This document shows, one piece after another, positions 1 through 13,426 of a DNA stretch of 13,426 bases. The first letter of the stretch is position 1, and each line of letters begins with the position of its first letter. The notes below the pieces were generated by a model that saw nothing but the letters and a program-made list of their open reading frames with translations, made no database searches and was not told where the DNA came from. The position numbers were made by a program, and so were the translations under genes. The stretch comes from a virus (lineage: Duplodnaviria; Heunggongvirae; Uroviricota; Caudoviricetes). The stretch spans positions 1 through 13,426 of the IMG/VR virus record IMGVR_UViG_651053022_000002; one strand, 5' to 3'.

Positions 1-177
1 TTACTGTTGGCGCAGGGTACGGATACCCTCCCTGGCCTGTGCGATACAGGGCAACAGTGCTGCCGAATCTGTTTTATCCTCATCGTTGTCGAAGATAATT
101 CCCGATTCGCAGTCGATATTGTCCTGCAGCCACGTAATCAGAATATCCAGCGCTGTTTCCGTGGTTAATGATTTCAT
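1..177 (-). CDS. Small conserved protein (58 aa) downstream of the cbtA module; possibly DUF957/YpjJ-like
   Basis: ATG at 177..175 and TAA at 3..1, internal to the 181-aa ORF 1..546. Protein MKSLTTETALDILITWLQDNIDCESGIIFDNDEDKTDSAALLPCIAQAREGIRTLRQQ. Position matches the small gene that follows cbtA in CP4-type islands (from memory). No strong Shine-Dalgarno. Confidence 0.45.
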   Translation of the reverse strand: MKSLTTETALDILITWLQDNIDCESGIIFDNDEDKTDSAALLPCIAQAREGIRTLRQQ

Positions 178-193
178 GTTGTGAATTTCCGGA

Positions 194-682
194 TTACCAG
201 TCGAAAGTGGGTAAACCCGGCAGATATCCGGCACTGGCATCCAGATGAATGAGACTGACACCATAACACCGGATGAGTGTGACGACCAGACGACGGAACG
301 TTTTTGACAGCCCCAGGCGCTTAAGCCGCAGAACCGGGTATGACCACGTATCGGTACGTAACAGATAACCGGTACCGGTAAAATGAATCCATTCTGATTC
401 ACCGAAGTCACTGGTCTGGTGTGACAGCGAGTACAGCCAGGCGTTGTCCGTTTCCGTGATATGTGCGGTACTGCAGCGTATGCCGGTAAGGGCAACAAAT
501 GGTGGCGTGCAGTCTGCTGAGGTCCGGTCAGATTCATCAACAACACGAAGGGAGTAGCCGTTATCGCAGACCATGTTAATCAGTTCAGCGAGATTAACAC
601 CATCAATGTCAACGACAATGCGCCCCATGTTCAGCGCCTGCACGTTAACGCTGTCGGCTTCCAGCGTCAGGGCCAGTTTCAT
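194..682 (-). CDS. Hypothetical protein (162 aa), DUF5983-like partner downstream of cbtA
   Basis: ORF 194..682. GGAGG sits 7 nt upstream of the ATG at 682..680, inside the 3' end of cbtA, so the two genes overlap by 38 nt. Family name is recalled from annotation habit, not verified. Confidence 0.5.
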
Positions 683-1055
683 CGTTTCGCCTCCGGATGC
701 TTCCCAGGGTAATGTTATTTACCGTTCTGTAATTGTCGCGGATCATCAGGCCTGTTGCCCGGCGAGCCCGGAGGATATCGATGCTGTTTATTAACTGAGA
801 GTGGGTACAGGCGCTGAATCCCGGCAGGTCGGTACGTACCAGTGCGTATTTTTCCACGAGAAAGTTCACTGCATCACACAGTGAAATGCCTGCCTCAATA
901 TGCTGCTCAATCACACGTTCATCAGCGAACGGTGTGTCATTCAGCGTGAGGCCATAGTGCTGGTCCAGCAGTCGGGTGAGCAGTGTCTGCCAGATGGTGA
1001 CTGGAGACGGGCAGCACGATACCTCCCGTACATGCGTGTCGGGTAATGTTTTCAT
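645..1055 (-). CDS. cbtA: CbtA-family toxin of a type IV toxin-antitoxin system (YeeV/YkfI/YpjF-like), 136 aa
   Basis: Translation [103 protein letters not shown]... matches my recollection of E. coli YeeV across most of its length; the C-terminal tail is longer than the recalled ~124-aa form. Confidence 0.85.
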
Positions 1056-1144
1056 ACTGAAGATTTTCCTGATATGCAGAGATAAAAAATGGGACAGTGG
1101 CGTGGTGAAAACACCAGGCCGGAGCAGAAGGTTATTCTGGTGGT

Positions 1145-1513
1145 TTACTTTTTCGTTTCAGGTGTCGGATAAACAGCCAGATAAACGTAACCACAGGAGC
1201 CGAGGGTGTCGGCTTCACAGGTCAGCCCCTTCGCATACAGTGTCACGGTATGCTGATGGCGGGGATTCAGTTCACCACTGGTGAGCATTAATTTCAGTTG
1301 TTTCATCAGCAGCGGAAAGGCCTGGTCCAGAGGGTACGCATCCGCATCTCTGAACCGGCCTCTGATACCGGCACGGTCGGCAAGGTAATGCAACCGGTTA
1401 CCCTCCTGCACCAGACGGGCGCCGAAACAGGGCGTCACTGTGCAGGGTAGTCCCCACCAGGGATGGTCGTCATTGTCATCGGGATGCGTTGTCCCGGAAA
1501 GTGTGTCTGACAC
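1145..1513 (-). CDS. cbeA: CbeA-family antitoxin (YeeU/YfjZ-like), copy A, about 123 aa with a GTG start
   Basis: Core ...[35 protein letters not shown]...[12 protein letters not shown]...[43 protein letters not shown] is YeeU-like. GTG at 1513..1511 is preceded by GAGGA. The ORF-track extension to 1621 runs into an unrelated remnant. Sits 89 nt upstream of cbtA. Confidence 0.75.
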
Positions 1514-1562
1514 GATAAAATCCTCACAGAAAATCGGTGAATGATAGTTTAACGATGACGGG

Positions 1563-1665
1563 TCAGCCGGCGCGCAGACCGGCTTCGGTAAAGGTGTATT
1601 CGTTGATGAGCAGGACCTCATCCACAGCGGCGTCTGAGCTCTGCCAGTCGTACTCGTTTTCCGGG
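1563..1665 (-). pseudogene. 3' fragment of the 171-aa gene (duplicate of the 2479..2580 segment), not an independent gene
   Basis: ORF 1563..1772 ends ...[32 protein letters not shown], near-identical to the C-terminus of the 2479..2994 protein. Nucleotide similarity runs about 1561..1660 and then breaks. Confidence 0.5.
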
Positions 1666-1917
1666 TGACGGAACATCCAGCAGTCGGGTGAGCAGTGTCT
1701 GCCAGATGGTGACGGGAGACGGGCAGCGCGATGCCGCCCGTACGTGTATGCCTGCCTCAATATGCTGCTCAATCACACGTTCATCGGCAAACGGTGTGTC
1801 ATTCAGTGTGAGGCCATAGTGCTGGTCCAGCAGTCGGGACAGCAGTATCTGCCAGATTTCAACAGGAGACGGGCGAGAACTGGCCGCCTGCCCGGGTAAT
1901 ACAGGTAATGTTTTCAT
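1618..1917 (-). pseudogene. Chimeric cbtA remnant: 5' end of cbtA (about 57 codons) joined to a second partial copy of the cbtA 5' segment
   Basis: Translation begins [57 protein letters not shown] (cbtA N-terminus) and then re-enters ...[17 protein letters not shown]. The segment 1681..1746 is a near-copy of 970..1033. Confidence 0.6.
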
Positions 1918-2012
1918 ACTGAAGATTTTCCTGATATGCAGATATAAAAATGGAAAAGTGGCGTGGTGAAAACACCAGGCCGTAGCAGAAGGCTATTCTG
2001 GAGAGTTAATTT

Positions 2013-2190
2013 TTCATTTCGGGCGTCGGATAAACAGCCAGATAAACGTAATCACAGGAGCCCAGGGTATCGGCTTCGCAGGTCAGTCCTTTCGCATACA
2101 GTTCATTTCGGGCGTCGGATAAACAGCCAGATAAACGTAACCACAACTGCTGAGGGTATCGGCTTTGCAGGTCAGCCCTTTTGCATACAG
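2013..2190. repeat. Tandem direct repeat, 2 x 89 bp, diverged copies of the cbeA 3' end
   Basis: Copy 1 at 2013..2101 and copy 2 at 2102..2190 both start ttcatttcgggcgtcggataaacagccagataaacgtaa and end gcatacag; a third related copy lies at about 1160..1250 in cbeA copy A. Confidence 0.8.
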
Positions 2191-2463
2191 CGTGACGGTA
2201 TGCTGATGGCGGGGATTCAGTTCACCGCTGGTGAGCATGAGTTCCAGTTGTTTCATCAGCAGCGGAAAGGCCTGGTCCAGGTGGTACGCATCTGCATCGC
2301 TGAACAGGCCTCTGATACCGGCGCGGTCGGCAAGGTAATGCAACCGGTTACCCTCCTGCACCAGACGTGCCCCGAAACAGGGCGTCACGGTGCAGGGCAG
2401 TCCCCACCAGAGGCGGTCGTTATGGTCGTCGGGATAATTTGTCTCATGGAGTTTGTCTGACAC
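2083..2463 (-). CDS. cbeA: CbeA-family antitoxin, copy B (126 aa), with a C-terminus altered by the tandem repeat
   Basis: [99 protein letters not shown]... is YeeU-like. The protein ends ...PTPEMNCMRKD, whereas the adjacent repeat copy encodes the canonical-looking ...PTPEMKN stop. Confidence 0.75.
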   Translation of the reverse strand: MSDKLHETNYPDDHNDRLWWGLPCTVTPCFGARLVQEGNRLHYLADRAGIRGLFSDADAYHLDQAFPLLMKQLELMLTSGELNPRHQHTVTLYAKGLTCKADTLSSCGYVYLAVYPTPEMNCMRKD

Positions 2464-2478
2464 GATAAAGTCCTCAGG

Positions 2479-2994
2479 TCAGCCGGCGCGCAGACCGGCT
2501 TCGGTGAAGGTGTATTCGTTGATGAGAAGGGCCTCATCCACAGCGGCATCAGAGGTCAGCCTGTCGTACTCGTTTTCCAGCTGACGGTACAAGTCGCGCA
2601 GGGCTTCGCTGACAGCGGCTTCCGCATCGGCTGTCATAGCCTGACCAGTCGGACTGTTCCGGGTAACAGTGATATCCATGCTGTACGGATGGCAGTAACG
2701 TCCCCGGTGGTGGATTTCAGCCTGCAGTTGCCAGAAGTTACGTTTCTGCACCGCCTGCAGGGCATCCGCGATACGATGGAGTTCATGGTCCTGTGTGGCA
2801 TACTCCCGGAGCCTTCTGGCTGTTGCTGGCTGCCAGTGCCAGCGTCCTTCAAAACAGGCTCCGTCCCCCTGGCTGCAGAATCCGCTGAACCAGATGCACG
2901 CCTCTTCCATAAACCTGCCGTTGCTGAGCCGGAAAACGCGCTGGCGGAGGTCAATTCCGAAAATGCCACAGACCGCCCTGAAGTCCTCATACAC
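2479..2994 (-). CDS. Conserved hypothetical protein immediately upstream of cbeA (171 aa from a GTG); possibly disrupted at its 5' end
   Basis: ORF 2479..2994 begins at GTG 2994..2992; reading upstream in frame hits TGA at 3051..3049. An ATG-initiated ORF in another frame (ATGATG at about 3084, through a T7/A7 run at 3054..3060) covers the upstream sequence. Family not recognised. Confidence 0.45.
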   Translation of the reverse strand: MYEDFRAVCGIFGIDLRQRVFRLSNGRFMEEACIWFSGFCSQGDGACFEGRWHWQPATARRLREYATQDHELHRIADALQAVQKRNFWQLQAEIHHRGRYCHPYSMDITVTRNSPTGQAMTADAEAAVSEALRDLYRQLENEYDRLTSDAAVDEALLINEYTFTEAGLRAG

Positions 2995-3093
2995 GTTTTC
3001 ATACCAGTTGCTGTCAGCATGATGCTGACGGTACCAGTCGCGGGCTTTTCACGATAAAAAAACTTCGGCAATTTCATCATGATTTGAAACATT

Positions 3094-3117
3094 GGCACCC
3101 TGTTAGCAAGGGTGCCA
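3094..3117 (-). terminator. GC-rich hairpin (8-bp stem) at the par-module / TA-island junction; possible terminator after parR
   Basis: ggcaccct-gttagca-agggtgcc at 3094..3117, downstream of parR on the minus strand; the following U-tract is weak. Confidence 0.3.
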
Positions 3118-3165
3118 GAATGATGTGTTGGTCTGTATTTTATTAGTTCACATACAATTATCAGA

Positions 3166-3480
3166 TTATTCTGGGAATAAGGTCTGAATATTCTTTTTTA
3201 TTTTATAAAAATTGCATTCAACTCCGCTAGGCTGATTATCCTGGTATGTTTCCTTGATGCTAACGGTATTGAAGGGGAGGTTGTCCTCTGGCCATTCGGC
3301 CATCCAGTAGGCAAATGCTGGGTTGCGCTTTATGAGCGCTAGCCCAGCCAGAAAGGCCGCGCGTTGCGCGCGGCTGCGTTCGGAGGCTGGCAGGCTATCG
3401 AGGTAATTGCACGCCTCCTGTTCACTCTTGACGGCGGCGGGCTTCAGATAGAAACTTATCCGTCTGGTTGGTGTCGTCAT
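3166..3480 (-). CDS. parR: ParR-like centromere-binding protein of a type II (ParMR) partition system, 104 aa
   Basis: ATG at 3480..3478 lies 4 nt after the parM stop. MTTPTRRISFYLKPAAVKSEQEACNYLDSLPASERSRAQRAAFLAGLALIKRNP... resembles plasmid R1 ParR as I recall it (RRTIAFKL...LDSIPQGERSRLNRAALTAGLALY). The ORF-track extension to 3615 overlaps parM and is rejected. Confidence 0.75.
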   Translation of the reverse strand: MTTPTRRISFYLKPAAVKSEQEACNYLDSLPASERSRAQRAAFLAGLALIKRNPAFAYWMAEWPEDNLPFNTVSIKETYQDNQPSGVECNFYKIKKNIQTLFPE

Positions 3481-3484
3481 TGGT

Positions 3485-4444
3485 TTACTCCTTGTCCATT
3501 GCGTACAGCCCATTAACCAGAGCAAACTGTGGCACCCCGTCCGCGATGAAAGTCGCATTAACTCCGCAGACTTCGCGGATAGCGGGTGCCACAATCTCCG
3601 CCCCTCCACCGACAACCATCACCCGCCCGTAACCCGAAAAAACCGCCAGCGCGCGGATCACGCGTTGTTTCAGTGTTTCTTCCTTTTCACGAATAACCGC
3701 CATCAGGCTGGCGTAATGCGCGTCATTGTGGATGTGCTGGCGCAGCCAGGCTTCATCATGGCGATGTTCGATAATGGTATTGGCGATGTGGTGACTGGTG
3801 CGCATACCGTTAGTGGCCATCACCGACAGTACGGCATCGGCCATCAGGGAAACGCCTACGTGTGGATCGCAAAACACCTGGCTGATACCTGCCAGTTGCC
3901 CTTGAACCTTTGCCACATCCAGCGTGGTTCCGCCTAAATCCACAATCAGCAGGGATTCAAACGGACTCATGTCAGCCAGTGCTTTAAAGCCAGCCGGAAT
4001 GGATTCAGGCATAACCCGCACGTTACGGATAGTGAATGCTTCGCCGTTCTGGTATTCCACCGGGCGCATAACGTTCGCTTTTTTGCGGTTGATGTTGGCC
4101 ATGTCCGGCTGTGCGTTTGTGTCGAAATACTCGCTCAGTGGCAGGGTGACAACCACATCCACCTCCTGTGGCGTGATGCCTGATTTGACCAGCGCGTGAT
4201 GAATGGCGATTACATTCACATCGCTGTACTGGTATTGCGTGTCGGTCGTCTGGACAAAGCGATCGCTAACCGGATCAAAACCATAGCGCACGCCATCAAG
4301 CATGTAGTTCGCGGGCTGCATGCCACCGAACGGCGCAGACCATTCCGACTTGAAGCTGTTCGGGCTGATGGCGTTGCGGCGTTCGCCATTCTCAGTCCAT
4401 GCCAGCTTGATGTTGGTGGAGCCGTCGTCGATACAAATTTTCAT
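3485..4444 (-). CDS. parM: ParM/StbA-like actin-type plasmid segregation ATPase, 319 aa
   Basis: MKICIDDGSTNIKLAWTENG...ISPNSFKSEW...YSDVNVIAIHHAL...VVVTLPLSEY...LIVDLGGTTLDV... carries the actin-fold phosphate motifs (IDDGSTNIK, DLGGTTLD) and closely tracks my recollection of R1 ParM. AAGGAAAA Shine-Dalgarno precedes the ATG at 4444. Confidence 0.9.
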   Translation of the reverse strand: MKICIDDGSTNIKLAWTENGERRNAISPNSFKSEWSAPFGGMQPANYMLDGVRYGFDPVSDRFVQTTDTQYQYSDVNVIAIHHALVKSGITPQEVDVVVTLPLSEYFDTNAQPDMANINRKKANVMRPVEYQNGEAFTIRNVRVMPESIPAGFKALADMSPFESLLIVDLGGTTLDVAKVQGQLAGISQVFCDPHVGVSLMADAVLSVMATNGMRTSHHIANTIIEHRHDEAWLRQHIHNDAHYASLMAVIREKEETLKQRVIRALAVFSGYGRVMVVGGGAEIVAPAIREVCGVNATFIADGVPQFALVNGLYAMDKE

Positions 4445-4462
4445 GTCGCTTTTCCTTATGTT

Positions 4463-4590
4463 GATTAATTAATCGTTTACGGGATTCTGAAATCCCGTTT
4501 TTGCCTGTTTTGTGCGCGCTTCATATATCGCTGCGCGTTTTTTGCTCATTTACGGGATTCGTAAGTCCCGTTTCTGTCTGTTTTTTGTTT
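4463..4590. repeat. Centromere- or operator-like repeats: the AT palindrome gattaattaatc plus two copies (73-bp period) of a hairpin-containing unit
   Basis: gattaattaatc at 4463..4474. Unit A: acgggatt-ctga-aatcccgt at 4479..4498 followed by T-rich sequence. Unit B: acgggatt-cgta-agtcccgt at 4552..4571, same flanks (tttacgggattc...cccgttt...ctgtttt). Unit A is in the rep-parM intergenic region; unit B is inside the rep 3' coding end. Confidence 0.7.
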
Positions 4591-7343
4591 CCACTGGTCA
4601 GGCCACCCCGCAGCAGGTCTGCTTTGCGGCTGGCGCGTTCAGTGGTTTCACTGATTCTCTGTGCGTGCTCTGCGTCGCGGATGGCGCGCAGCATGTCAGA
4701 AAGCACGGTAACGGGTGTTTTCATGGTGTTCTGGCCCTGCTGAAGTGTGGATGCCAGGCGTGCGGCGGCTTCAGGGTCTGATGCCCCCAGCTGTGCCAGA
4801 TAGCTGGCGACCGGGTTATGGCGGATCTCCGTGCTGCTTACGCCATGATTACGGCTCAGGCGCTGCCAGAGCTGCGTGATTCGGCTGTCCGGGCGGGTAT
4901 CCGGTTTGCGTACAATTTCAAATCCCTGCGGTGCAATGATGCTGCCGTCAACGTACAGACTGCCGCCCCGTAACAGGTGCTGCATCTGTTGTTCACCGAT
5001 ATGCAGGCCGAGAGATTCAGCAGACTCCCGCCATTCTTTAGCGAGTAATTCGTGGTTATCAGGCAAAGGCCGCTGCTGTTTGCGGCTCTGTGTCCAGCTC
5101 TGCATTTCATCGCTGCTGTTTTTTGCCTGTTTGTCACGAAGCGAACGCATCAGCGCCCGGCGTTCGTGTCGTTTCAGTGAGCGCATCCATTCGTTCACTT
5201 CAACGCCGTCAGGGAGCTGCGGCCACGGTGCTGGCCGTTCTTCCGGCTGTTCTGTCCCGTTGTTGTCCGTTTCCTGTACACGGGGACAGTTATTGCCACG
5301 AGTCCAAGGGGCGGCAGGGCCGCCCTGAAGGTCAAAACCATTTTCGCGGGCGCTGTCTTCCGCTTCCGGTTTACGTCTTACCAGCTTCCAGTTATCCGGA
5401 TGCGTGCACACACGGGAGGATTCCCCGATGAGTGGTGACCAGATCCCGTAAATCTGTACGCTCTGTTCGCCGTAATCGTTCAGCTCATCTGCGAGGTCGT
5501 AGGCGGTGCGAATCAGGTAGTCCTTGCGTGGAACAAGCACGCCACCCTGTTTTTCAATGTAGGTGGCAAAACACCCGGCATCGGCGGCAGCGAGTACCGC
5601 ATCCATTGCATCATCTTTCAGCCGTTGCGGGCCTTCCGGATTGCGTGCCATCTGGCTGGCAAGGCGGCGCAGTTCACGCCACACCTGACGGGAGGGGATG
5701 CCAAAGAACTGGAACTGACGGACCCGGTGAAGGCGCGCCCAGCCGATGGCGCGCTCCACGCTCTCGGCCATTGATTTTCCGGTTTCGTGGTCCACGCGTG
5801 GCTTGCCCGTTTTCGGGTCGATGCCATCCACGGCGCGGCTGTCCAGGTTCTTTCCGATGTAGGTGGCGATGTAGCTGGTTGGCGTGCCTTTTGAGCCGTC
5901 GACATACTCCACCTTAAAGCGCGGAGTAATATCATTGCCCAGCTCGTGGCGGTCTTCCTGAATGGCAATATCGCGGGTATGGGACACAATGGTGTCGATT
6001 TCTTCCGGATGTGCAAAGACCATCATATGCCAGTGCACGGTGCCGTCATGATGAGGCTCCACCGTGCGGATGCCATACCAGCGCAGGCCGTCGCGGTTCA
6101 GTTTTTTGCGGACCGCCGCAAAAAACGTGTTAACCAGGTAATCGCTGGAGTCGCGCATTGTGGCCCCGTTCCATTTGGGATTCGGATGACCGTTCTCCGT
6201 TGTGGCGTGGTATTTTGACGGGCAGGTGACAGTCAGAAACACCGCTTTGTCGCCACGGGCTTCGGCCAGAAGTTCCAGTCCCTTCATGGTGGCCATCATT
6301 TCTGCCTTACGGTGAACCGGGTTACTTACTCCCGCGTAATACACTGTCTCGAGATCAATCGTGAACCCGTCTTCATTTTCCAGCATGAAACTTTTCAGGA
6401 AATCGCGTGTTTTCTCGCGCTGTGCGCGAAACTCGCTTAACGCGTCCTGGCTCAGATAGGGTGATGTTTTTCTGGAAACCAGACAGGCGGCGCGGAGTTG
6501 TTCTTCTCTCCACTCGCAACGTAACAGCCACAGTTTGCGTTTCCACCATTCCGCACAGGTCAGGCGAAGGATTGCGCCCGGCAGCAGCTCCGTGTCCGGT
6601 TCGTTCCTCCGGTCTTTGTCTGTTGTCAGTGCGTCATAATGTGGAGGCATGGCGTGCAGGTGTAACGCCATGCGGGCCAGCATCTGATACGCCTTCAGGG
6701 TTACATCCATGGTCAGCTCGCCATCGGTCGCGCCAAAGCCATCGCAGAGTTTTTCGAAGGTGCTGCTGAACATCGCCGCCGTCATGGTGGCCAGCGTCTG
6801 TATCTGGTGTTTGTTGAGCTGCGGCAGGTAAAGCAAATCGTCCAGGCGTTCGCGTCCGGCAAGGGAGCGATAACCCGGTGTCAGCCAGCGTCCGTCAGTG
6901 CTATCCAGACGTTCGAATATTTTGCGCAGGGTTCCGCGTGCATAGCGTTCCGCCTGCCAGCTCTTTTTGCCTTTCCGGCGATCGGCTTCCTGTTTTTTGC
7001 GCAGGAAGGAGAGGTGGCGAATAAGCGGATCGCGCAGATAGGACGGCAGCAGGCGCAGCGAGGCCATGGCTTCATCCACCGCGCCACGTGCCTGTTTTCT
7101 GGCGTCTCCTGCCAGTGTGATGGTTTTGTCCTGTTTTTCCTGTGCGTCCAGGCTTTTATTAATCAGGTTGCCCAGCGGCGTGGCTGAGAACGCCGCATCA
7201 GCCATTTCCTGGCGGCGCTCGTTCTCTGCCCGGTAGGCATCCAGCCAGGAGGAAAGCGCGGATTCAGGAGCGGGGATCCCCGTTCCTTCACGCCCCACTG
7301 CGTGGCGCGGTTGTTGCCAGTCCCTGAGGTACTCTGCCGTCAT
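4521..7343 (-). CDS. Rolling-circle replication initiator (HUH endonuclease, phage P2 gpA / phiX174 gpA superfamily), 940 aa
   Basis: Contains the HUH metal-binding motif (TVHWHMMVF) and, about 50 residues later, the paired-tyrosine motif SYIATYIGKNLD (YxxxY) typical of superfamily-I rolling-circle Reps. No Walker A motif was seen, so it is not a P4 alpha-type primase-helicase. Confidence 0.85.
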   Translation of the reverse strand: MTAEYLRDWQQPRHAVGREGTGIPAPESALSSWLDAYRAENERRQEMADAAFSATPLGNLINKSLDAQEKQDKTITLAGDARKQARGAVDEAMASLRLLPSYLRDPLIRHLSFLRKKQEADRRKGKKSWQAERYARGTLRKIFERLDSTDGRWLTPGYRSLAGRERLDDLLYLPQLNKHQIQTLATMTAAMFSSTFEKLCDGFGATDGELTMDVTLKAYQMLARMALHLHAMPPHYDALTTDKDRRNEPDTELLPGAILRLTCAEWWKRKLWLLRCEWREEQLRAACLVSRKTSPYLSQDALSEFRAQREKTRDFLKSFMLENEDGFTIDLETVYYAGVSNPVHRKAEMMATMKGLELLAEARGDKAVFLTVTCPSKYHATTENGHPNPKWNGATMRDSSDYLVNTFFAAVRKKLNRDGLRWYGIRTVEPHHDGTVHWHMMVFAHPEEIDTIVSHTRDIAIQEDRHELGNDITPRFKVEYVDGSKGTPTSYIATYIGKNLDSRAVDGIDPKTGKPRVDHETGKSMAESVERAIGWARLHRVRQFQFFGIPSRQVWRELRRLASQMARNPEGPQRLKDDAMDAVLAAADAGCFATYIEKQGGVLVPRKDYLIRTAYDLADELNDYGEQSVQIYGIWSPLIGESSRVCTHPDNWKLVRRKPEAEDSARENGFDLQGGPAAPWTRGNNCPRVQETDNNGTEQPEERPAPWPQLPDGVEVNEWMRSLKRHERRALMRSLRDKQAKNSSDEMQSWTQSRKQQRPLPDNHELLAKEWRESAESLGLHIGEQQMQHLLRGGSLYVDGSIIAPQGFEIVRKPDTRPDSRITQLWQRLSRNHGVSSTEIRHNPVASYLAQLGASDPEAAARLASTLQQGQNTMKTPVTVLSDMLRAIRDAEHAQRISETTERASRKADLLRGGLTSGNKKQTETGLTNPVNEQKTRSDI

Positions 7344-7349
7344 AGTGAT

Positions 7350-7715
7350 TTACTTCGTCATGCCATTCAGGGTGTCGCGGCAGACTGTAGCCAGCCGCTG
7401 AATTTCCAGCACGGTGTCTTCTGTGTCGGCATGGCGATGTGTGATGCGGATGCTGTCGGCAATCACATCGACGATTGCAGAGGATGGGCGCTGGTAAATG
7501 CCAATAACGGACGGGGTGCCACCTTCAATGCGGTAAAGCCTGTAATTTCCCTCGTGGCTGTCAATCATGTAGCGACCATCAATAACAATCTTTCCGTCAG
7601 CGAGCTGCGGTACAGGCAGGGATTTCAGGTACATGTCATAACGATCACGCACGCGAGCGGCAAGATCACGTTCTGTATTGAGCAGGTATTCAAGAAAGTC
7701 GTTGGCGAGAATCAT
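7350..7715 (-). CDS. Hypothetical protein (121 aa) immediately upstream of rep
   Basis: ORF 7350..7715 with AAGAGGA 7 nt before the ATG; its stop lies 6 nt before the rep start, suggesting co-transcription. Confidence 0.6.
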   Translation of the reverse strand: MILANDFLEYLLNTERDLAARVRDRYDMYLKSLPVPQLADGKIVIDGRYMIDSHEGNYRLYRIEGGTPSVIGIYQRPSSAIVDVIADSIRITHRHADTEDTVLEIQRLATVCRDTLNGMTK

Positions 7716-7787
7716 TGCGGCAATCCTCTTGTTACAGATGTGCGAAGGCCTCCCGCCGCAAGGTGCAGGAAAGGCCCGGAACAGGAA

Positions 7788-8018
7788 TTAATGGAGTTTG
7801 TTTTGCTGCTGGATGAGCTGTTGAAGCTCGTGCAGATCATCCGCCAGATAGCTGAAAACAGAGGCGGAATAAATGTTTGATAGTGCGTGGCTGCGCTCAT
7901 GCAGCATATTGATGTGCATGATTTGCGCGACGCGTGATGCGCGGGAAAGTCTGCGGTTGATTTCAGTCTGGATGTGACGACGCTCCGCGATAGCGCGGTG
8001 CTGTTTGCGGTTTGCCAT
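7788..8018 (-). CDS. Small basic protein (76 aa), possible DNA-binding regulator
   Basis: ORF 7788..8018, MANRKQHRAIAERRHIQTEINRRLSRASRVAQ..., Arg/Lys-rich N-terminus; AAGGGG Shine-Dalgarno upstream. Confidence 0.5.
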   Translation of the reverse strand: MANRKQHRAIAERRHIQTEINRRLSRASRVAQIMHINMLHERSHALSNIYSASVFSYLADDLHELQQLIQQQNKLH

Positions 8019-8196
8019 GGTGTGGCCCCTTGTGTAGTAAGTTGTGAAAACTCACCATCCAGAGCTGCGAAACTGTGGGTGGCGAGACGTACGAGGTTCG
8101 CAGTACCGGCTACACAAGAACCCGGCCCGACCGAAGTCGGCCCCGTACGCCCCGCCATAATTCTGACGCGAAAAAAACGTGGCAATACAGTACGCA

Positions 8197-8218
8197 CAAA
8201 AAAACCGCTGGCGCGGTT
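8197..8218 (-). terminator. Candidate intrinsic terminator on the minus strand inside the early operon
   Basis: Minus strand reads aaccgc-gcca-gcggtt followed by TTTTTTT (plus coordinates 8203..8218 stem-loop, 8197..8202 T-tract), about 120 nt after the 8341..8640 gene. Confidence 0.5.
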
Positions 8219-8340
8219 GTGCGCTTGTGTAGTCAGCAGGCTGCGAAACCCGGCACCCGTTTTATGAGGTGCAGCGGAAATGTAACCTGACTGATTGCGG
8301 CATGGCAAGCGGTTTTTTTGTGTGTGCATGCTCTGGTTTC

Positions 8341-8640
8341 TTACTGGTTCAGAAAAAAATCAAAAACCTTGTCAATACGTTGCAGCAGCTCTTGCTGTAT
8401 TGCTTCCGGCGTTTCCGGTTCGCCTGGCACCTCCAATGTCGCGCAGAAATCAGCGATTTCATGATGGAGCGTCAGGCGAATGGCAGGAGCCGTGGTTCTG
8501 GCGTGCTCCAGCTCATCCAGCAATGCCAGCGCAGCAGACGGCGAGAGCATTGCGCGAAATGCCAGTAATTTTTGAGGTGTTGCCATTCGTTGCAGGGCAA
8601 ATGCCAGTTCGCGTAGCTTCTGGTGGTTGATGGTGCTCAT
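8341..8640 (-). CDS. Hypothetical protein (99 aa)
   Basis: ORF 8341..8640 with GAAGGAAG Shine-Dalgarno; its start overlaps the upstream gene's stop by 4 nt. Confidence 0.6.
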   Translation of the reverse strand: MSTINHQKLRELAFALQRMATPQKLLAFRAMLSPSAALALLDELEHARTTAPAIRLTLHHEIADFCATLEVPGEPETPEAIQQELLQRIDKVFDFFLNQ

Positions 8641-8903
8641 GTTCTGGCTTCCTTCAGTAGCTGGTTAAACATGTGAGTAAGTGGATTGCTACACCCGAAC
8701 GGCATCGGGTTTACGTGGTAAGAAGCCTGGCCTCCAGTTTTGCGAGCGCGACCACCTGTGCTGCGGTTTGTTCTGATGACTAAGCCGCCGCGCCAAAGTT
8801 GGCGTAACTCAGCATTAATGGCTGTGGTTGGAGTATTCAGTGCTGCGGCGATCTCTCCGCCGCTACACCCCGGATGAGTAGCGATGTAGTCCAGAATGGT
8901 CAT
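8637..8903 (-). CDS. Hypothetical protein (88 aa), possible winged-helix DNA-binding protein
   Basis: ORF 8637..8903, AGGAG 6 nt before the ATG; MTILDYIATHPGCSGGEIAAALNTPTTAINAELRQLWRGGLVIR is an HTH-like segment; 4-nt overlap with the neighbouring gene. Confidence 0.6.
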   Translation of the reverse strand: MTILDYIATHPGCSGGEIAAALNTPTTAINAELRQLWRGGLVIRTNRSTGGRARKTGGQASYHVNPMPFGCSNPLTHMFNQLLKEART

Positions 8904-9103
8904 CTGCGTGGCTCCTGTACCTGTCGGATAAGGTTTACCCGCGCCACATTAGTGGCGCAGAAGTAAGTGCCGTCAGTGAGGTAGATGTGGTGTGCATCCT
9001 TTTCCGAACGATGTTTGTCGATAGTGGTAATCAGGCGTTCGTCGACCTCGTATTCGCGCCCTCTGGAGGTAAAGCGAACGACGGGAAAATGCTTAATTGC
9101 CAT
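8900..9103 (-). CDS. Hypothetical protein (67 aa)
   Basis: ORF 8900..9103 with AAGGGGG Shine-Dalgarno. Confidence 0.55.
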   Translation of the reverse strand: MAIKHFPVVRFTSRGREYEVDERLITTIDKHRSEKDAHHIYLTDGTYFCATNVARVNLIRQVQEPRR

Positions 9104-9126
9104 TGCGCCCCCTTTGTCCAGTAACT

Positions 9127-9537
9127 CTATGCGTTAAATACGGTGCACTGTGCGTCATCAATGAATGCGACTTGAGAGCGCTCTATCAGGCGGAGATTTG
9201 TCAGAATTTCTGATTCCCTTATGGGGTGAGGAGTGATCAGGTATTTATCCTGTAACCCGGCGATAATGGTGTATCGCTGTAGCTCCGAGCCAATTGTGTA
9301 AATAAGGCGTCCGGTGTTAGACAAATCCAGTCCGGTGACTGGTTGTGTTCTGAGAACCGCCAGTTCAGCATCCTGTTTTGCGATAATTTCGGCTGCTTCT
9401 GCCGTGACTCTTGCGACTATCAGTGTGTGGGTTGCGACGTCCATATGATTATTTGCTATGGCTTTTTTCGCTACTTCGTTTTCTGTCTTTGAAATTTCTT
9501 TCAGTGCTCTGATGATACCTTCTTCTTTTGCGTGCAT
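9127..9537 (-). CDS. Hypothetical protein (136 aa)
   Basis: ORF 9127..9537 with GGAGA 7 nt before the ATG; lower G+C than the rep region. Confidence 0.6.
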   Translation of the reverse strand: MHAKEEGIIRALKEISKTENEVAKKAIANNHMDVATHTLIVARVTAEAAEIIAKQDAELAVLRTQPVTGLDLSNTGRLIYTIGSELQRYTIIAGLQDKYLITPHPIRESEILTNLRLIERSQVAFIDDAQCTVFNA

Positions 9538-9630
9538 TTTTGTATCTCCGTTATTTGCGTGTGCGAATACCTCCGTTAATACGGATGGTTTTCACGTTTT
9601 CTTATTTAATTTGATGTTTTATTTGTATCG

Positions 9631-9744
9631 TTATTCACCAGTGAAAAAACGTTCAATCTTTTTTACTGAATGAATAATTCGCACAATGCCAATTGCGCAG
9701 ACCACTGAAATAATCAGAACAATCCATGACATAAATATACTCAT
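9631..9744 (-). CDS. Unlisted small hydrophobic peptide (37 aa), probably a single transmembrane helix
   Basis: My own translation: MSIFMSWIVLIISVVCAIGIVRIIHSVKKIERFFTGE. The ATG at 9744..9742 overlaps the upstream stop at 9743..9741 (ATGA coupling); GGGGA lies 7 nt upstream. Too short for the supplied ORF track. Confidence 0.4.
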   Translation of the reverse strand: MSIFMSWIVLIISVVCAIGIVRIIHSVKKIERFFTGE

Positions 9745-9983
9745 GCGATATTCCCCAGCTTATACGGTTCAATATGTTCCCCGCATTCTGCGGCACAGAT
9801 CAGCTCGGAAAGTTCGTTAAGTGCATCCAGATCATCAGCGTAAAAAGCCACGTCATACAGACTCCGGATTGCCCTGGTCAATGAGTCACGGGCTGCACGT
9901 TCAGCATGAGCGCCTGATGCACTTAAGCGAAAATAAAAACGCTCAAGTGCTTTGTTAATGAGAGTTTTATATTCTTTGCCCAT
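9741..9983 (-). CDS. Hypothetical protein (80 aa from the internal ATG)
   Basis: ORF 9741..10034 trimmed to the ATG at 9983..9981 (MGKEYKTLINKALERFYFRL...), which avoids overlap with the upstream gene. Confidence 0.5.
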   Translation of the reverse strand: MGKEYKTLINKALERFYFRLSASGAHAERAARDSLTRAIRSLYDVAFYADDLDALNELSELICAAECGEHIEPYKLGNIA

Positions 9984-9994
9984 CGCAACGCCCT

Positions 9995-10273
9995 TTAATC
10001 TGCTTTCTGAATTTCTGCTTCTGAATCCATACAAATAATTTCGATATAGGGTTCATCGCCATTAGTCTTACGTGCTTTTTCCGCTTCGCTAATGATTTCG
10101 TGTACAGTCTGGTACGGAAGTTCTACGGTCAGGCGCGTGCCGTTCAGATAAACGTAAGTAGCTGCATTTTTTTCGGATGGAACAACTCCGTCAATGGCTG
10201 ATGCGCGTAATAACAGTTCACCGCGAAAATCAATAAAACGGATAAATACACCTTGTGCATGCTCTTTGGTCAT
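9995..10273 (-). CDS. Hypothetical protein (92 aa from the internal ATG)
   Basis: ORF 9995..10333 trimmed to the ATG at 10273..10271 (MTKEHAQGVFIRFIDF...), with AGGTG upstream and a 10-nt gap to the preceding gene. Confidence 0.5.
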   Translation of the reverse strand: MTKEHAQGVFIRFIDFRGELLLRASAIDGVVPSEKNAATYVYLNGTRLTVELPYQTVHEIISEAEKARKTNGDEPYIEIICMDSEAEIQKAD

Positions 10274-10283
10274 AAAGCACCTG

Positions 10284-10634
10284 TTATAAATCAGCCTGTT
10301 TAATAAAACTTTGCCCGTGAAGCAGACGATCAACCGTGCGAAGTGCTTCGTATAATGTGAAATCCTGCCCGAACTGATTGTCGCCGTTGCTCAGTGCAAA
10401 AATGCGGTTTCCGGTAAATGGGTTGCGCTGGCATCTGTGAACCACGATTCCTGCTTTTTCAATCAGCCAAGTGTGTTCACCAATTTGTTTTACTGGGTAG
10501 CCATCCGGCGTTGCGTGTGTTTCGCTCAGGCTGTAGCGAGAGTTGCTACGTGATGCACTGGTAGCGAAACGGTTAGCATGGCGTTCCGCACCGTTGCGGA
10601 AGCGCTGCTGTGAAGAATTGCGCTGTAGTTTCAT
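10284..10634 (-). CDS. Hypothetical protein (116 aa), first gene of the leftward early operon
   Basis: ORF 10284..10634; the ATG at 10634 sits just downstream of a palindrome-containing promoter region. Confidence 0.55.
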   Translation of the reverse strand: MKLQRNSSQQRFRNGAERHANRFATSASRSNSRYSLSETHATPDGYPVKQIGEHTWLIEKAGIVVHRCQRNPFTGNRIFALSNGDNQFGQDFTLYEALRTVDRLLHGQSFIKQADL

Positions 10635-10645
10635 ATTAAAACTCT

Positions 10646-10737
10646 GTACCTTCGGTAAGGTGTACTCGTGTCACCTTGTATTGATTTGTGGTATTTTTTT
10701 TGTGTGTCTAGGACTTGGACTGGCCGGTTCAGGTCCT
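10646..10737. promoter_or_regulatory. Divergent regulatory region with two inverted repeats
   Basis: accttCGGTaaggt at 10648..10661 (5-bp arms); imperfect inverted repeat aggacttggac / gttcaggtcct at 10710..10737 (9 of 11 positions complementary, 6-bp spacer). Lies between the minus-strand early operon and the plus-strand 63-aa ORF. Confidence 0.35.
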
Positions 10738-10771
10738 GGCTTATGTTTAATTAAATTGTTAAGAGGTTTTC

Positions 10772-10963
10772 ATGTCAGAAGATAAAAAAGTTGTTAATTT
10801 GTTGAGTGAACTTAGTGCTGCTCTGGATAACATTAACCCTCCCAGGGTAAAAACGACGGGTGATAAAGACGCATTAAACACAGAGATTCATATATTACTG
10901 GCGTTAGTAACTGACAAAATTCAGCGTAAATACCCACCTGTCACACAACTGGTTGATTTTTAA
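10772..10963 (+). CDS. Small hypothetical protein (63 aa), AT-rich, the only plus-strand gene in the interior
   Basis: ORF 10772..10963, MSEDKKVVNLLSELSAALDNINPPRVKTTGDKDALNTEIHILLALVTDKIQRKYPPVTQLVDF, with AAGAGG 6 nt before the ATG; convergent with the 141-aa gene. Confidence 0.5.
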   Translation: MSEDKKVVNLLSELSAALDNINPPRVKTTGDKDALNTEIHILLALVTDKIQRKYPPVTQLVDF

Positions 10964-10969
10964 TTTGAT

Positions 10970-11392
10970 TTATGCCGGGCTGCTCCCGGCATCTTCTACC
11001 TGCCATAATGTCTCGTCACCTGATAGAGCAAAACGAAATGAGTGAAGTATATCCCCCCGAGAGAAGCTCACGGCTACAGCTGCGGGAAAGTCAAATATAA
11101 TCCCACCTTCATTTTTAAAACGATTACGCAATTGATAGGCTATCGGTTTGATTTGTGCAGGAAGAGTATCTATATCTCTTCCATTGACAACAGAATCTTT
11201 GTTTTCAAGTACTGATTTAGCGATTAGATATAGATGCCAGTAACTGGTTACAATTGTTACTCCTGTGATGTGTCGTAAATTAATTGCAATTCGTCCGTTA
11301 TTATGTTTTTCCGCAAGGTATTTCAGGTTATCAATTAATGCTTGGTCATTTTTTGAAATAGTTATTGTGAAATCTGACGTGTTTGTTTTCAT
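10970..11392 (-). CDS. Hypothetical protein (141 aa) in an AT-rich segment; candidate cargo (moron) gene
   Basis: ORF 10970..11635 trimmed to the ATG at 11392..11390, 4 nt after the upstream stop. Protein MKTNTSDFTITISKNDQALIDNLKYLAEKHNNGRIAINLRHITGVTIVTSYWHLYLIAKSVLENKDSVVNGRDIDTLPAQIKPIAYQLRNRFKNEGGIIFDFPAAVAVSFSRGDILHSFRFALSGDETLWQVEDAGSSPA. I counted 23/60 G+C in line 11101..11160 versus 41/60 in rep line 5701..5760. Confidence 0.6.
   Translation of the reverse strand: MKTNTSDFTITISKNDQALIDNLKYLAEKHNNGRIAINLRHITGVTIVTSYWHLYLIAKSVLENKDSVVNGRDIDTLPAQIKPIAYQLRNRFKNEGGIIFDFPAAVAVSFSRGDILHSFRFALSGDETLWQVEDAGSSPA
10972..10992 (+). terminator. Hairpin (8-bp stem) just after the 63-aa ORF; possible terminator overlapping the 3' end of the convergent 141-aa gene
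   Basis: atgccggg-ctgct-cccggcat at 10972..10992, 9 nt after the TAA at 10961..10963; the following tract (cttct) is only weakly U-rich. Confidence 0.3.
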
Positions 11393-11396
11393 ACGA

Positions 11397-11918
11397 TTAG
11401 TTGCCTCTGTTGTTTCTGAGTTGGTCCAGTTTTGAGCTTCTGCCTGTATAAACTCGCTTACCGTTAATGGTCTGGCAGTCTTCTTTATTAGCTGGAGAGA
11501 ACTTCCTTTTCTGGCGGTCATACGTCCAGTAACTTTTCCAGTTGTGCCATTCTGGGGGCTCGTGCTCTGGTAGCTCATCAGCCAACTTGTCCCACTCTTT
11601 GGCGTTAAACCACCATACTCCGTCTGAGTTTTCATCTTCCGGGTTTGTGCGCGTCTTGTGTCCCGGCATTTGACCGCGATGAATGGCTACGCGCAGTGCA
11701 GATTTTGTTAGCCCAATATATGCCGCGCCTTTTTCCAGAGAGCAAAGCCCGGCGATCGGACCATCCAGCCGCAAAGTCGCTCCTTTTTTGTAGGAACGCT
11801 TTTTCTTGTTTTCTTCGTGCTCGTCGTCGTTGGCGGCATCAATGGATCCGCTGAGTGCGTCACTTTCCTGAAGTGGTTGGTGGTCAGATAACTCTTTATC
11901 GGCAATGAAGTCCCGCAT
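11397..11918 (-). CDS. Excisionase/Cox-like HTH protein (173 aa) with an acidic N-terminus, divergent from the repressor
   Basis: ORF 11397..11918 with AAGAGGA before the ATG. The segment GAAYIGLTKSALRVAIHRGQMPGHK...GVWWFNAKEWDKL looks like an Xis/AlpA/MerR-type HTH with wing; its position mirrors cox/apl in P2/186-type switches. Confidence 0.6.
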   Translation of the reverse strand: MRDFIADKELSDHQPLQESDALSGSIDAANDDEHEENKKKRSYKKGATLRLDGPIAGLCSLEKGAAYIGLTKSALRVAIHRGQMPGHKTRTNPEDENSDGVWWFNAKEWDKLADELPEHEPPEWHNWKSYWTYDRQKRKFSPANKEDCQTINGKRVYTGRSSKLDQLRNNRGN

Positions 11919-11977
11919 TTGTTATCCTCTTGCGTTGGTGCGCTTGTCGCGCCTTGTGATGGTTTGTTTTGGCTTGT

Positions 11978-12001
11978 AAAGATAACCAAAAGGTTATCTT
12001 T
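11978..12001. promoter_or_regulatory. Perfect palindromic operator (10-bp arms, 4-bp spacer) in the divergent promoter region
   Basis: aaagataacc-aaaa-ggttatcttt at 11978..12001; a further half-site ggttatctt at 12025..12033 overlaps the regulator start codon. Confidence 0.6.
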
Positions 12002-12022
12002 GTGCGAGAGGTTAATACTCAA

Positions 12023-12364
12023 ATGGTTATCTTGTCAATAGACTACGCAAAAAAGTTACGTCAGATACGTAAGGCGGAAGGGTTAACACAAAAGCAGTTT
12101 GCGGATATTACTGGGTTGTCTTTGGCAACCATAAGGAATTACGAATCGGGGCAAAAGAACGCTAGAGCAAAAATCGTTGAGGCGGTTCTGCAAGTCGATC
12201 GCTTTGAAAAATACATGCTGTGGCTAATAAAAGATAAGACGCTACCTGTCGCCGGGCAGATTGCTCCGGCTCTCTCTCTTGATGGATCTATTCAGTCGGA
12301 GGGCGATCAGGTTTCAATCGGTATTACCCAAAAATCACCCCGATCAGGCCGCAATGTTGGCTGA
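12023..12364 (+). CDS. XRE-family helix-turn-helix transcriptional regulator (immunity repressor-like), 113 aa
   Basis: The segment LRQIRKAEGLTQKQFADITGLSLATIRNYESGQK is a canonical XRE/Cro-C1 HTH. First in-frame ATG at 12023 (the ORF track begins at a TTG at 11969). Same orientation as int, divergent from the Cox-like gene. Confidence 0.75.
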   Translation: MVILSIDYAKKLRQIRKAEGLTQKQFADITGLSLATIRNYESGQKNARAKIVEAVLQVDRFEKYMLWLIKDKTLPVAGQIAPALSLDGSIQSEGDQVSIGITQKSPRSGRNVG

Positions 12365-12433
12365 CTCTACACATTGAGCGAATTACATATCGCAAGGAGT
12401 GTTTAGTTAATTTATCCGTTGGAGGGGCTAATC

Positions 12434-13426
12434 ATGTCGATTAAGCAACTCAAAGACGGACGTTATCAGGTCGATGTCAGACCGCAGGGGGCGGAAGGAA
12501 AGCGGATTCGAAAAATCTTTGCCCTGAAATCAAAGGCTCAGGAGTTTGAGAAGTATGTGTTACAGAACTTTCATGACAAGCCATGGCAGGCTAAGCCAGC
12601 TGATCAGCGGCGATTATCAGAGCTGCTTGATGCGTGGTGGATGCTTGATGGGCGTAATCAGGCTTACGGGGATAGCTACAGGGTTAGGCTAGGGAAGGTT
12701 GTTCGTGAAATGGGAGATCCTCGCGCCAGTCAGATGACGCGAAAATTTATGCTTGAATATCGGTCAGAGAAATTACAGGCCGGATTAATGCCGTCCAGTA
12801 TTAATCGTGACTTATGCGTACTGTCTACCATGTTCACGGTGCTGATTGAAGCTGAGGTCTTTCACAACGCGAACCCTGTACGCGGTATACGAAAACTGAA
12901 AGTTCAGAACACAGAGATGGCCTTTCTTTCTGATGATGAGATTGAACGGCTTCTTGAGCGACTGGAGGGTGATGTGCGTCGTGTTGCCATTCTGTGTCTT
13001 TCTACTGGTGCCCGATGGAGTGAAGCATCGGAACTACGTGGAGAGCATATCGTTGGCAACCGGGTGACGTTCTTTAACACCAAAAACGGAAAATCCCGTT
13101 CGGTTCCTGTGGCGGATTCGGTCGTGCCTCTGATTAAAACCCGTCGAACGGGGTTATTGTATCAGGTTGATTATCTGAAGTTCCGGGAGATTCTTCAGGA
13201 GGTGAAACCGGATTTGCCGAAGGGGCAGGCTACGCATGTCATGCGTCATACATTTGCCACACACTTTATGATGAATGGCGGAAATATTGTTACGTTGCAA
13301 CGAATCCTGGGGCACGCAACGATTCAGCAAACAATGACGTACGCTCATTTTTCGCCGGACTTTTTACTGGACGCGATCAACTTTAATCCGCTGGCTGAAA
13401 GTGTCCATAAACTGTCCATCGATTAG
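12434..13426 (+). CDS. int: Tyrosine site-specific integrase, 330 aa
   Basis: GGAGGGG lies 7 nt before the ATG at 12434. N-terminal arm-binding-like region (MSIKQLKDGRYQVDVRPQGAEGKRIRKIF...), catalytic signatures (ARWSEASELR; HVMRHTFATHF; LGHATIQQTMTYAHF). The stop codon is the last three bases of the window. Confidence 0.9.
   Translation: MSIKQLKDGRYQVDVRPQGAEGKRIRKIFALKSKAQEFEKYVLQNFHDKPWQAKPADQRRLSELLDAWWMLDGRNQAYGDSYRVRLGKVVREMGDPRASQMTRKFMLEYRSEKLQAGLMPSSINRDLCVLSTMFTVLIEAEVFHNANPVRGIRKLKVQNTEMAFLSDDEIERLLERLEGDVRRVAILCLSTGARWSEASELRGEHIVGNRVTFFNTKNGKSRSVPVADSVVPLIKTRRTGLLYQVDYLKFREILQEVKPDLPKGQATHVMRHTFATHFMMNGGNIVTLQRILGHATIQQTMTYAHFSPDFLLDAINFNPLAESVHKLSID

Follow-up and report, generated by a model that had tools for sequence, protein, structure and literature searches.

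A conserved 37-codon gene of P88-like prophages encodes a predicted small inner-membrane peptide

Comparative analysis of related loci shows that a 37-codon reading frame in the early region of a P88-like prophage is a real protein-coding gene under purifying selection. The gene lies in the window, by which we mean the whole 13,426-nt stretch of DNA analyzed here (positions 1 to 13,426 of the IMG/VR record IMGVR_UViG_651053022_000002). We tentatively interpret its product, with a probability of roughly 0.45, as an accessory small membrane protein of the early lytic phase that would act by binding another membrane protein, most probably one of the host.

Reading frame and translation signals

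The coding sequence occupies 9631..9744 on the minus strand, including its TAA stop codon, and translates to MSIFMSWIVLIISVVCAIGIVRIIHSVKKIERFFTGE, which is identical to RefSeq WP_000021715.1. The gene immediately upstream (9741..9983, minus strand) encodes an 80-aa DUF4754 protein (Pfam PF15946, E = 2.8e-54; phrog_2549). The two genes overlap in an ATGA junction at 9741..9744 (minus strand), in which the ATG of the peptide (9744-9742) shares bases with the TGA of DUF4754 (9743-9741), and a GGGGA Shine-Dalgarno sequence (9756-9752, minus strand) is positioned 7 nt 5′ of the peptide ATG, within the last DUF4754 codons. An earlier reading of the window from its letters alone (the sequence-only reading) had picked out this frame, the overlap and the Shine-Dalgarno sequence, all of which are present on the minus strand at these coordinates.

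The bases shared by the start codon of the peptide and the stop codon of DUF4754 point to translational coupling, and a model in which the peptide is translated in dependence on the upstream gene is supported by comparison among relatives. The ATGA junction was found in every locus checked (20 sequences, 80 loci and 18 loci). In each upstream context inspected, a purine-rich Shine-Dalgarno sequence (GAGG, GGAG or GGGGA) was located at the same distance from the start, even in relatives with a differing C-terminus of DUF4754.

The gene had also been described as sitting in an AT-rich gap, and the base composition agrees: G+C content is 33% in 9538-9740, compared with 51.5% for the whole window. 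The peptide ORF itself has 32.5% G+C, a low value that follows from its abundance of Ile, Phe and Val codons. When the gap 9538-9740 was shuffled with its composition kept, an ATG ORF of at least 37 codons arose in 12.7% of cases, a frequency that lends some credit to the idea that the peptide is functionless, the frame being either a chance ORF or one in which only the act of translation matters (for example, by keeping the mRNA occupied by ribosomes before they reach the spacer and the following gene). An ORF of this length that also encodes a 19-residue stretch with a Kyte-Doolittle value of at least 2.5 arose in only 0.02% of the same shuffles.

Conservation and purifying selection

A HMMER scan of 1.84 billion representative proteins identified nine clusters, all of them belonging to the peptide's own family. 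Among them are 41-aa forms with 49-65% identity, whose C-terminus reads ...IExLFTG[DE]xxxK. The contigs carrying these clusters are syntenic, with DUF4761, an 80-aa DUF4754-like gene, the peptide gene with its 4-nt overlap, more small genes and gpA. Likewise, a tblastn search with the peptide against 50,697 phage records matched only Xuanwuvirus-type phages. On the evidence of these searches, the family is narrow and undescribed, and is limited to Xuanwuvirus-type prophages of Escherichia, Citrobacter and Salmonella.

For tests of selection, 118 related loci were gathered from the contig, phage-record and IMG/VR sets. A contig scan with a single DUF4754 sequence gave 2 loci, a first IMG/VR scan returned loci with near-identical DUF4754, and a re-ordered alignment gave the divergent set. 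Over the first 111 nt, a stop in the peptide frame was present in only 2 of 57 distinct alleles, and each of the other five frames was interrupted in 35-57 of the 57. Pairwise differences were distributed over codon positions 1/2/3 as 320/131/529. Pairwise dN/dS ranged from 0.07 to 0.65 and was at most 0.38 except in one close pair differing at five sites only; synonymous sites are saturated between the deepest lineages. In four phylogenetically independent pairs, the peptide gene had a pN/pS of 0.28 (binomial p = 9.6e-9), compared with 0.41 for DUF4754 in the same pairs. The peptide is also 49-89% identical where DUF4754 is 26-44% identical.

The open frame, the pN/pS value and an identity above that of the neighboring gene together indicate that the peptide sequence itself is selected, and not merely the act of translating it. 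Conservation of the frame in related elements, on which the sequence-only reading had made its proposal depend, was thus found, with the frame open in 55 of the 57 alleles. A functionless peptide is close to refuted by these data, and we leave it only a very slight chance. Although the last four residues can be replaced through a frameshift in 8 of the 118 loci, that idea has to contend with a pN/pS of 0.28 at p of about 1e-8, with the conservative nature of the hydrophobic replacements, with seven invariant columns among 40 distinct full-length peptides, with the higher identity relative to the adjacent gene, and with the maintenance of only one of six frames.

The frameshift in those 8 loci results from the loss of one T from a T6 run (9643-9651, about codons 32-34, in CGTTTTTTC), which swaps the last four residues for a 12-residue tail and generates 45-aa forms in several sequence backgrounds. 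This one-base loss may represent real slippage or a homopolymer sequencing error. The major full-length forms are each present on at least about 1000 contigs, and the tail-frameshift forms on 1-16 contigs. The T6-loss variants suggest that the extreme C-terminus tolerates change. Two further interruptions were observed, a stop at codon 31 in phage Chuche and a frameshift at residue 11 in the prophage-derived phage 503458, which indicates that the gene is dispensable in at least some members of the group.

Predicted membrane topology

The sequence-only reading described a hydrophobic core followed by a charged tail, and both parts were recovered by quantitative analysis. Codons 3-21 (9682..9738, minus strand; IFMSWIVLIISVVCAIGIV) encode a predicted transmembrane helix with a mean Kyte-Doolittle value of 2.83, and the corresponding stretch in relatives scores 2.59-2.94. 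Codons 22-34 (9643..9681, minus strand; RIIHSVKKIERFF) encode a predicted amphipathic, positively charged juxtamembrane helix with a hydrophobic moment of 0.78, a value reached by 1.6% of shuffles; the moment is weaker in the 41-aa forms. AlphaFold2, run on the single sequence, predicted one helix over residues 2-34 with a pLDDT of 92.

Charged residues are absent before the hydrophobic stretch, and three Lys/Arg residues lie within the ten positions after its end. By the positive-inside rule, this charge asymmetry suggests an N-out/C-in orientation. The peptide is therefore predicted, from the hydropathy scale and the positive-inside rule, to be a bitopic inner-membrane helix with an amphipathic part on the cytoplasmic side, an arrangement that would leave just two residues on the periplasmic side. 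Among 40 distinct full-length peptides, M1, S6, W7, L10, G19, I24 and F34 are invariant and A17, K28, I30 and E31 nearly so. All 40 peptides have either Ser or Ala at position 13, giving a small-xxx-small spacing with A17. Conservation along a single helical face was not significant, as 9-11% of shuffles reach the observed value.

A length below 50 aa and a single transmembrane-grade stretch of at least 19 residues are the defining features of small single-pass membrane proteins, and the peptide has both. It resembles the bacterial proteins AcrZ, MgtS, MgrB, CydX and YohP (PMC12648545), which have fewer than 50 aa, one transmembrane helix and very short termini and likely act by partner binding. 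Unlike AcrZ-type proteins, the peptide is phage-encoded, lies in an early operon, is coupled to its neighbor through a stop/start overlap and has no sequence relation to them. In having a short N-terminal transmembrane helix followed by an amphipathic helix, it also recalls TatA/TatE, but it lacks the rest of TatA and the match is weak and sub-threshold; membership of the TatA family was rejected, as the relative P0005 scored 16.9 bits where the cut-off is 104. Also rejected was the reading as a lipoprotein or cleaved signal peptide, for which a basic n-region and a lipobox with an invariant Cys would be expected: residues 1-21 contain no Lys or Arg, and position 16 varies among the 40 distinct peptides, with Cys in 32, Met in 6 and Phe and Tyr in one each.

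Comparison with toxins and holins

The same physical features would fit a pore-former equally well. In such a scheme, the peptide would be a depolarizing toxin comparable to Hok or TisB, or a holin or viroporin, whose oligomers collapse the proton-motive force and bring about host shutdown or help to set the timing of lysis. Its size, single transmembrane helix, short termini and positive flank match the published description of type I toxins (PMC12648545), and the conserved [S/A]13-xxx-A17 followed by G19 could support self-association. The resemblance extends to Hok/Gef, TisB, Ldr, Ibs and ShoB, which are hydrophobic, shorter than 60 aa and equipped with one transmembrane helix and basic residues at the membrane edge. 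The peptide departs from these toxins in being operon-coupled and in having no antisense RNA partner, promoter of its own, long leader or family match.

Searches of the peptide against PHROGs, Pfam, NCBIfam, PADLOC and PDB sequences returned nothing above chance. None of the known toxin families (Hok/Gef, Ldr, Ibs, TisB and others) was matched; the hits in Pfam and NCBIfam were at chance level only, with PET117 at 15 bits (cut-off 27) and Gpos_tandem_5TM at 11 bits. No holin family was matched in Pfam or PHROG, and an Rfam scan over the peptide ORF detected no antitoxin RNA family. The number of promoter-like sites did not exceed that in shuffles, and the lone antisense match (9686-9714, plus strand) was at chance level, with its -10 element located on codons that differ in divergent alleles. 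The locus does not fit the definition of a type I toxin-antitoxin system, as it has no antitoxin RNA family, no conserved antisense promoter and no independent transcription unit. Holins are encoded beside an endolysin in the lysis cassette and expressed late; judged by position, the gene is not one of them, being situated between cox and A in the company of DUF4761, DUF4754 and wHTH genes and away from any lysis gene.

A pore-forming role is also at odds with the placement of the gene, which is ATGA-coupled within an operon rather than a separate transcription unit and lies in the early region away from the lysis genes, and with the cost to the phage of killing its host early. We consider it unlikely.

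Prophage context and annotation status

The window is shown to comprise the immunity and early region of a P88-like prophage (Xuanwuvirus, P2 family), and it matches a chromosomal prophage present in many E. coli strains. In NZ_CP023844, the gene order is integrase and C-type repressor, followed divergently by Cox, two hypothetical genes, DUF4761, a 92-aa gene, DUF4754 and the 37-aa CDS. Downstream of the 37-aa CDS are a 136-aa gene, a 67-aa gene, a MarR-type wHTH gene, more small genes, a replication endonuclease of the gpA type and ParM. Among named phages, those closest to the window are P88, P88_4B11, the Citrobacter rodentium phage PhiSM and other Xuanwuvirus members (Peduoviridae).

The early lytic operon of P2 and 186 runs from cox/apl to A and is shut off by the immunity repressor. 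The peptide gene shares its strand with cox and with the replication gene A, and from this strand and position we infer that it lies inside the corresponding cox-to-A early operon. The early-operon location proposed in the sequence-only reading therefore agrees with the P2-type layout, with operon membership deduced from the arrangement of the genes.

The DUF4754-peptide region was detected in 1377 of 5426 complete E. coli genomes (about one quarter), including ST131 and O157:H7 strains, and a CDS was annotated beneath the match in nearly all sampled rows of this search. The exact peptide sequence occurs on at least 1000 contigs. PGAP annotates it as a 'hypothetical protein' (WP_000021715.1), the phage P88 entry YP_009113050.1 as a 'membrane protein', two phage records as a 'putative membrane protein', and UniRef as a 'Prophage membrane protein'. 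The description of the peptide as hidden and missed by annotation was accordingly not borne out, given its presence in RefSeq, P88 and UniRef. The broader remark that small genes of this kind are routinely missed holds for two of the annotated phage records examined (phage 520873 and Shae_phiSM), from which the CDS is omitted, and does not hold for this peptide generally. The gene is thus already in the databases, and it is of a familiar kind, the phage small membrane proteins. No functional study emerged from literature searches on DUF4754, Xuanwuvirus, P88, or the sequences and accessions of the peptide.

One locus in our set (L003, on the 226-kb contig NZ_JBQPOM010000071.1) is labeled Vagococcus sp. 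WN89Y and carries a DUF4754 that is 98% identical to that of the window together with a P88-type peptide. This probably reflects contamination with enterobacterial DNA or mislabeling.

Relationship to DUF4754

Given the close linkage of the two genes, the peptide could be a membrane anchor or obligate partner of DUF4754, such that coupled translation yields a 1:1 complex in which DUF4754 is tethered to the inner membrane and the pair forms the functional unit. In every locus examined the genes adjoin each other through an ATGA overlap, and DUF4754 is predicted to be a small, soluble, helical protein. Its structural model is all-helical (pLDDT 88.8), and comparison of the predicted structure with the PDB gave a generic helical bundle (best E = 1.7) with no informative fold match. 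Exchange between alleles speaks against such a partnership: in locus L119 the peptide is 89% identical to that of the window and DUF4754 only 44%, whereas in locus L016 DUF4754 is 83% identical and the peptide 65%. Allele types thus recombine freely across the junction, with no co-variation seen, which argues against tight co-adaptation of the peptide and DUF4754 and makes an obligate complex a quite doubtful proposition.

In some strains (E. coli NR363, NR341 and NR319) the region is interrupted by IS1. One database protein (P0126) is a call that fuses the IS1 transposase with DUF4754.

Proposed role

The interpretation we prefer remains that of an accessory early-lytic protein that binds another membrane protein. 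If P2 is taken as the model, C would repress the early promoter in the lysogen, and synthesis of the peptide would consequently be confined to the time after infection or induction and keep pace with that of DUF4754. The peptide would then insert into the inner membrane and contact another membrane protein helix-to-helix, the candidate contacts being S6, W7, L10, [S/A]13, A17 and G19 together with the cytoplasmic residues K28, I30, E31 and F34. Its effect may be to tune an early lytic step, for example by acting on host cell-envelope or division functions or on the entry of competing DNA. Considering the stop in Chuche, the frameshift in 503458 and the mosaic neighborhood, in which adjacent genes vary among relatives, we infer that this role is accessory and not essential.

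Small membrane proteins of bacteria generally act by binding larger membrane proteins (PMC12648545). In the Staphylococcus aureus phage PhiNM1, the small membrane protein Gp11 is an early gene product that blocks division and has MurG and DivIC as binding partners (PMC11237401). Gp11 is the best functional precedent found and offers a plausible working model, being likewise a small membrane protein encoded in an early operon, although it belongs to another host and phage family and is likened to the peptide by description and not by sequence. Phage 186 provides a positional parallel in Fil, a cell-division inhibitor, and Dhr, an inhibitor of host replication, both of which are small non-essential genes that come directly after the switch genes in that phage's early lytic operon. 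These proteins differ from the peptide in length (75 and 66 aa) and in having no N-terminal transmembrane helix, and they are not homologous to it. Homology to Fil was rejected, as BLASTP gave only a 6-residue match (IVRIIH/IIRIVH) with an E-value of 0.089.

A stronger proposal is that P88-type phages would use the peptide early in the lytic cycle to inhibit, specifically, one essential inner-membrane protein of the host, for instance a divisome component or one concerned with lipid II or transport. The binding surface would then consist of S6, W7, L10, G19 and A17 plus K28, I30, E31 and F34. LysM of the ssRNA phage M is a 37-aa single-gene lysis peptide that inhibits MurJ. It has the same length as the peptide and a single transmembrane helix, and it illustrates that so small a molecule can specifically inhibit a host membrane enzyme. 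LysM, however, belongs to an unrelated virus class and serves in lysis, whereas the present gene is in the early operon of a tailed phage whose lysis cassette lies elsewhere. We hold this stronger proposal to be rather improbable; if true, about one quarter of E. coli genomes would encode a 37-residue 'protein antibiotic'.

Superinfection exclusion, in which the peptide would block the entry of competing phage DNA at the inner membrane during the lytic cycle, is a special case of our preferred interpretation and overlaps with it. Exclusion is known to be brought about by small phage proteins of the inner membrane, as exemplified by T4 Imm and HK97 gp15, and the peptide gene is non-essential and situated in a mosaic accessory region. 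On the other hand, exclusion would be most useful in lysogens, in which an early operon of the P2 type is repressed, the P2 exclusion genes old and tin are driven by a promoter of their own that lies outside this operon, and PADLOC defense models matched no family for the peptide or for two relatives. Exclusion is, in our estimation, decidedly unlikely.

The prevalence of the gene gives it wider relevance: P88-type prophages are among the commonest in E. coli, and the peptide is more conserved than the genes that surround it. If a host membrane protein is targeted, the peptide would offer a compact and easily synthesized probe or inhibitor, and the P2 family would be added to the few sources of phage early-gene membrane effectors. 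Even if its role proves minor, the locus is a clean case of a 37-codon gene validated by evolutionary tests.

Neighboring features

The peptide gene is followed by a 93-nt spacer (9538-9630) that contains a predicted 5-bp hairpin, UCCGU-AUUA-ACGGA, and then GG (9572..9585, minus strand), approximately 46-59 nt after the peptide stop. The motif TCCG[C/T]-N4-[G/A]CGGA + GG is found in 107 of the 118 loci and travels with the peptide module. The stem is 100% paired across 12 sequence classes, which include nine tetraloops, one C:G-to-U:A double change and one G:U pair, and its local fold has a z-score of -3.2. The sense strand is A-rich before the hairpin, and on the opposite strand a T-rich run follows it; in this configuration, the element looks like a weak terminator for the opposite (plus) strand.

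Directly after the peptide, the 136-aa gene (9127-9537, minus strand; phrog_9338, with no Pfam match) is missing at this place in P88 and several relatives, and DNA similarity to P88 and the relatives that lack it ends at about 9554. This gene is a mosaic insertion located just after the peptide and hairpin module.

In relatives, other tiny ORFs occur between cox and DUF4761 (398-505 and 502-609 in L009, 3039-3149 in L011 and 1522-1611 in L018). They are unrelated to the 37-aa peptide and have no counterpart in the window. Three of the four are strongly hydrophobic, including MCGMDKLDLMLIVILSINFGYLLSGAILMCGGKRK (35 aa) and MGSILFIITAFFISGFFMGRLYERNQKIR (29 aa).

Elsewhere in the early region, two Rfam families were matched above their gathering scores, namely the C4 antisense RNA (8075-8162, minus strand; 83 bits) and the isrK Hfq-binding RNA (8198-8272, minus strand; 65 bits). 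The two matches lie side by side, just upstream of a gene called 'derepression protein' in relatives (approximately 8018-7788), and the whole looks like an RNA-controlled antirepressor module.
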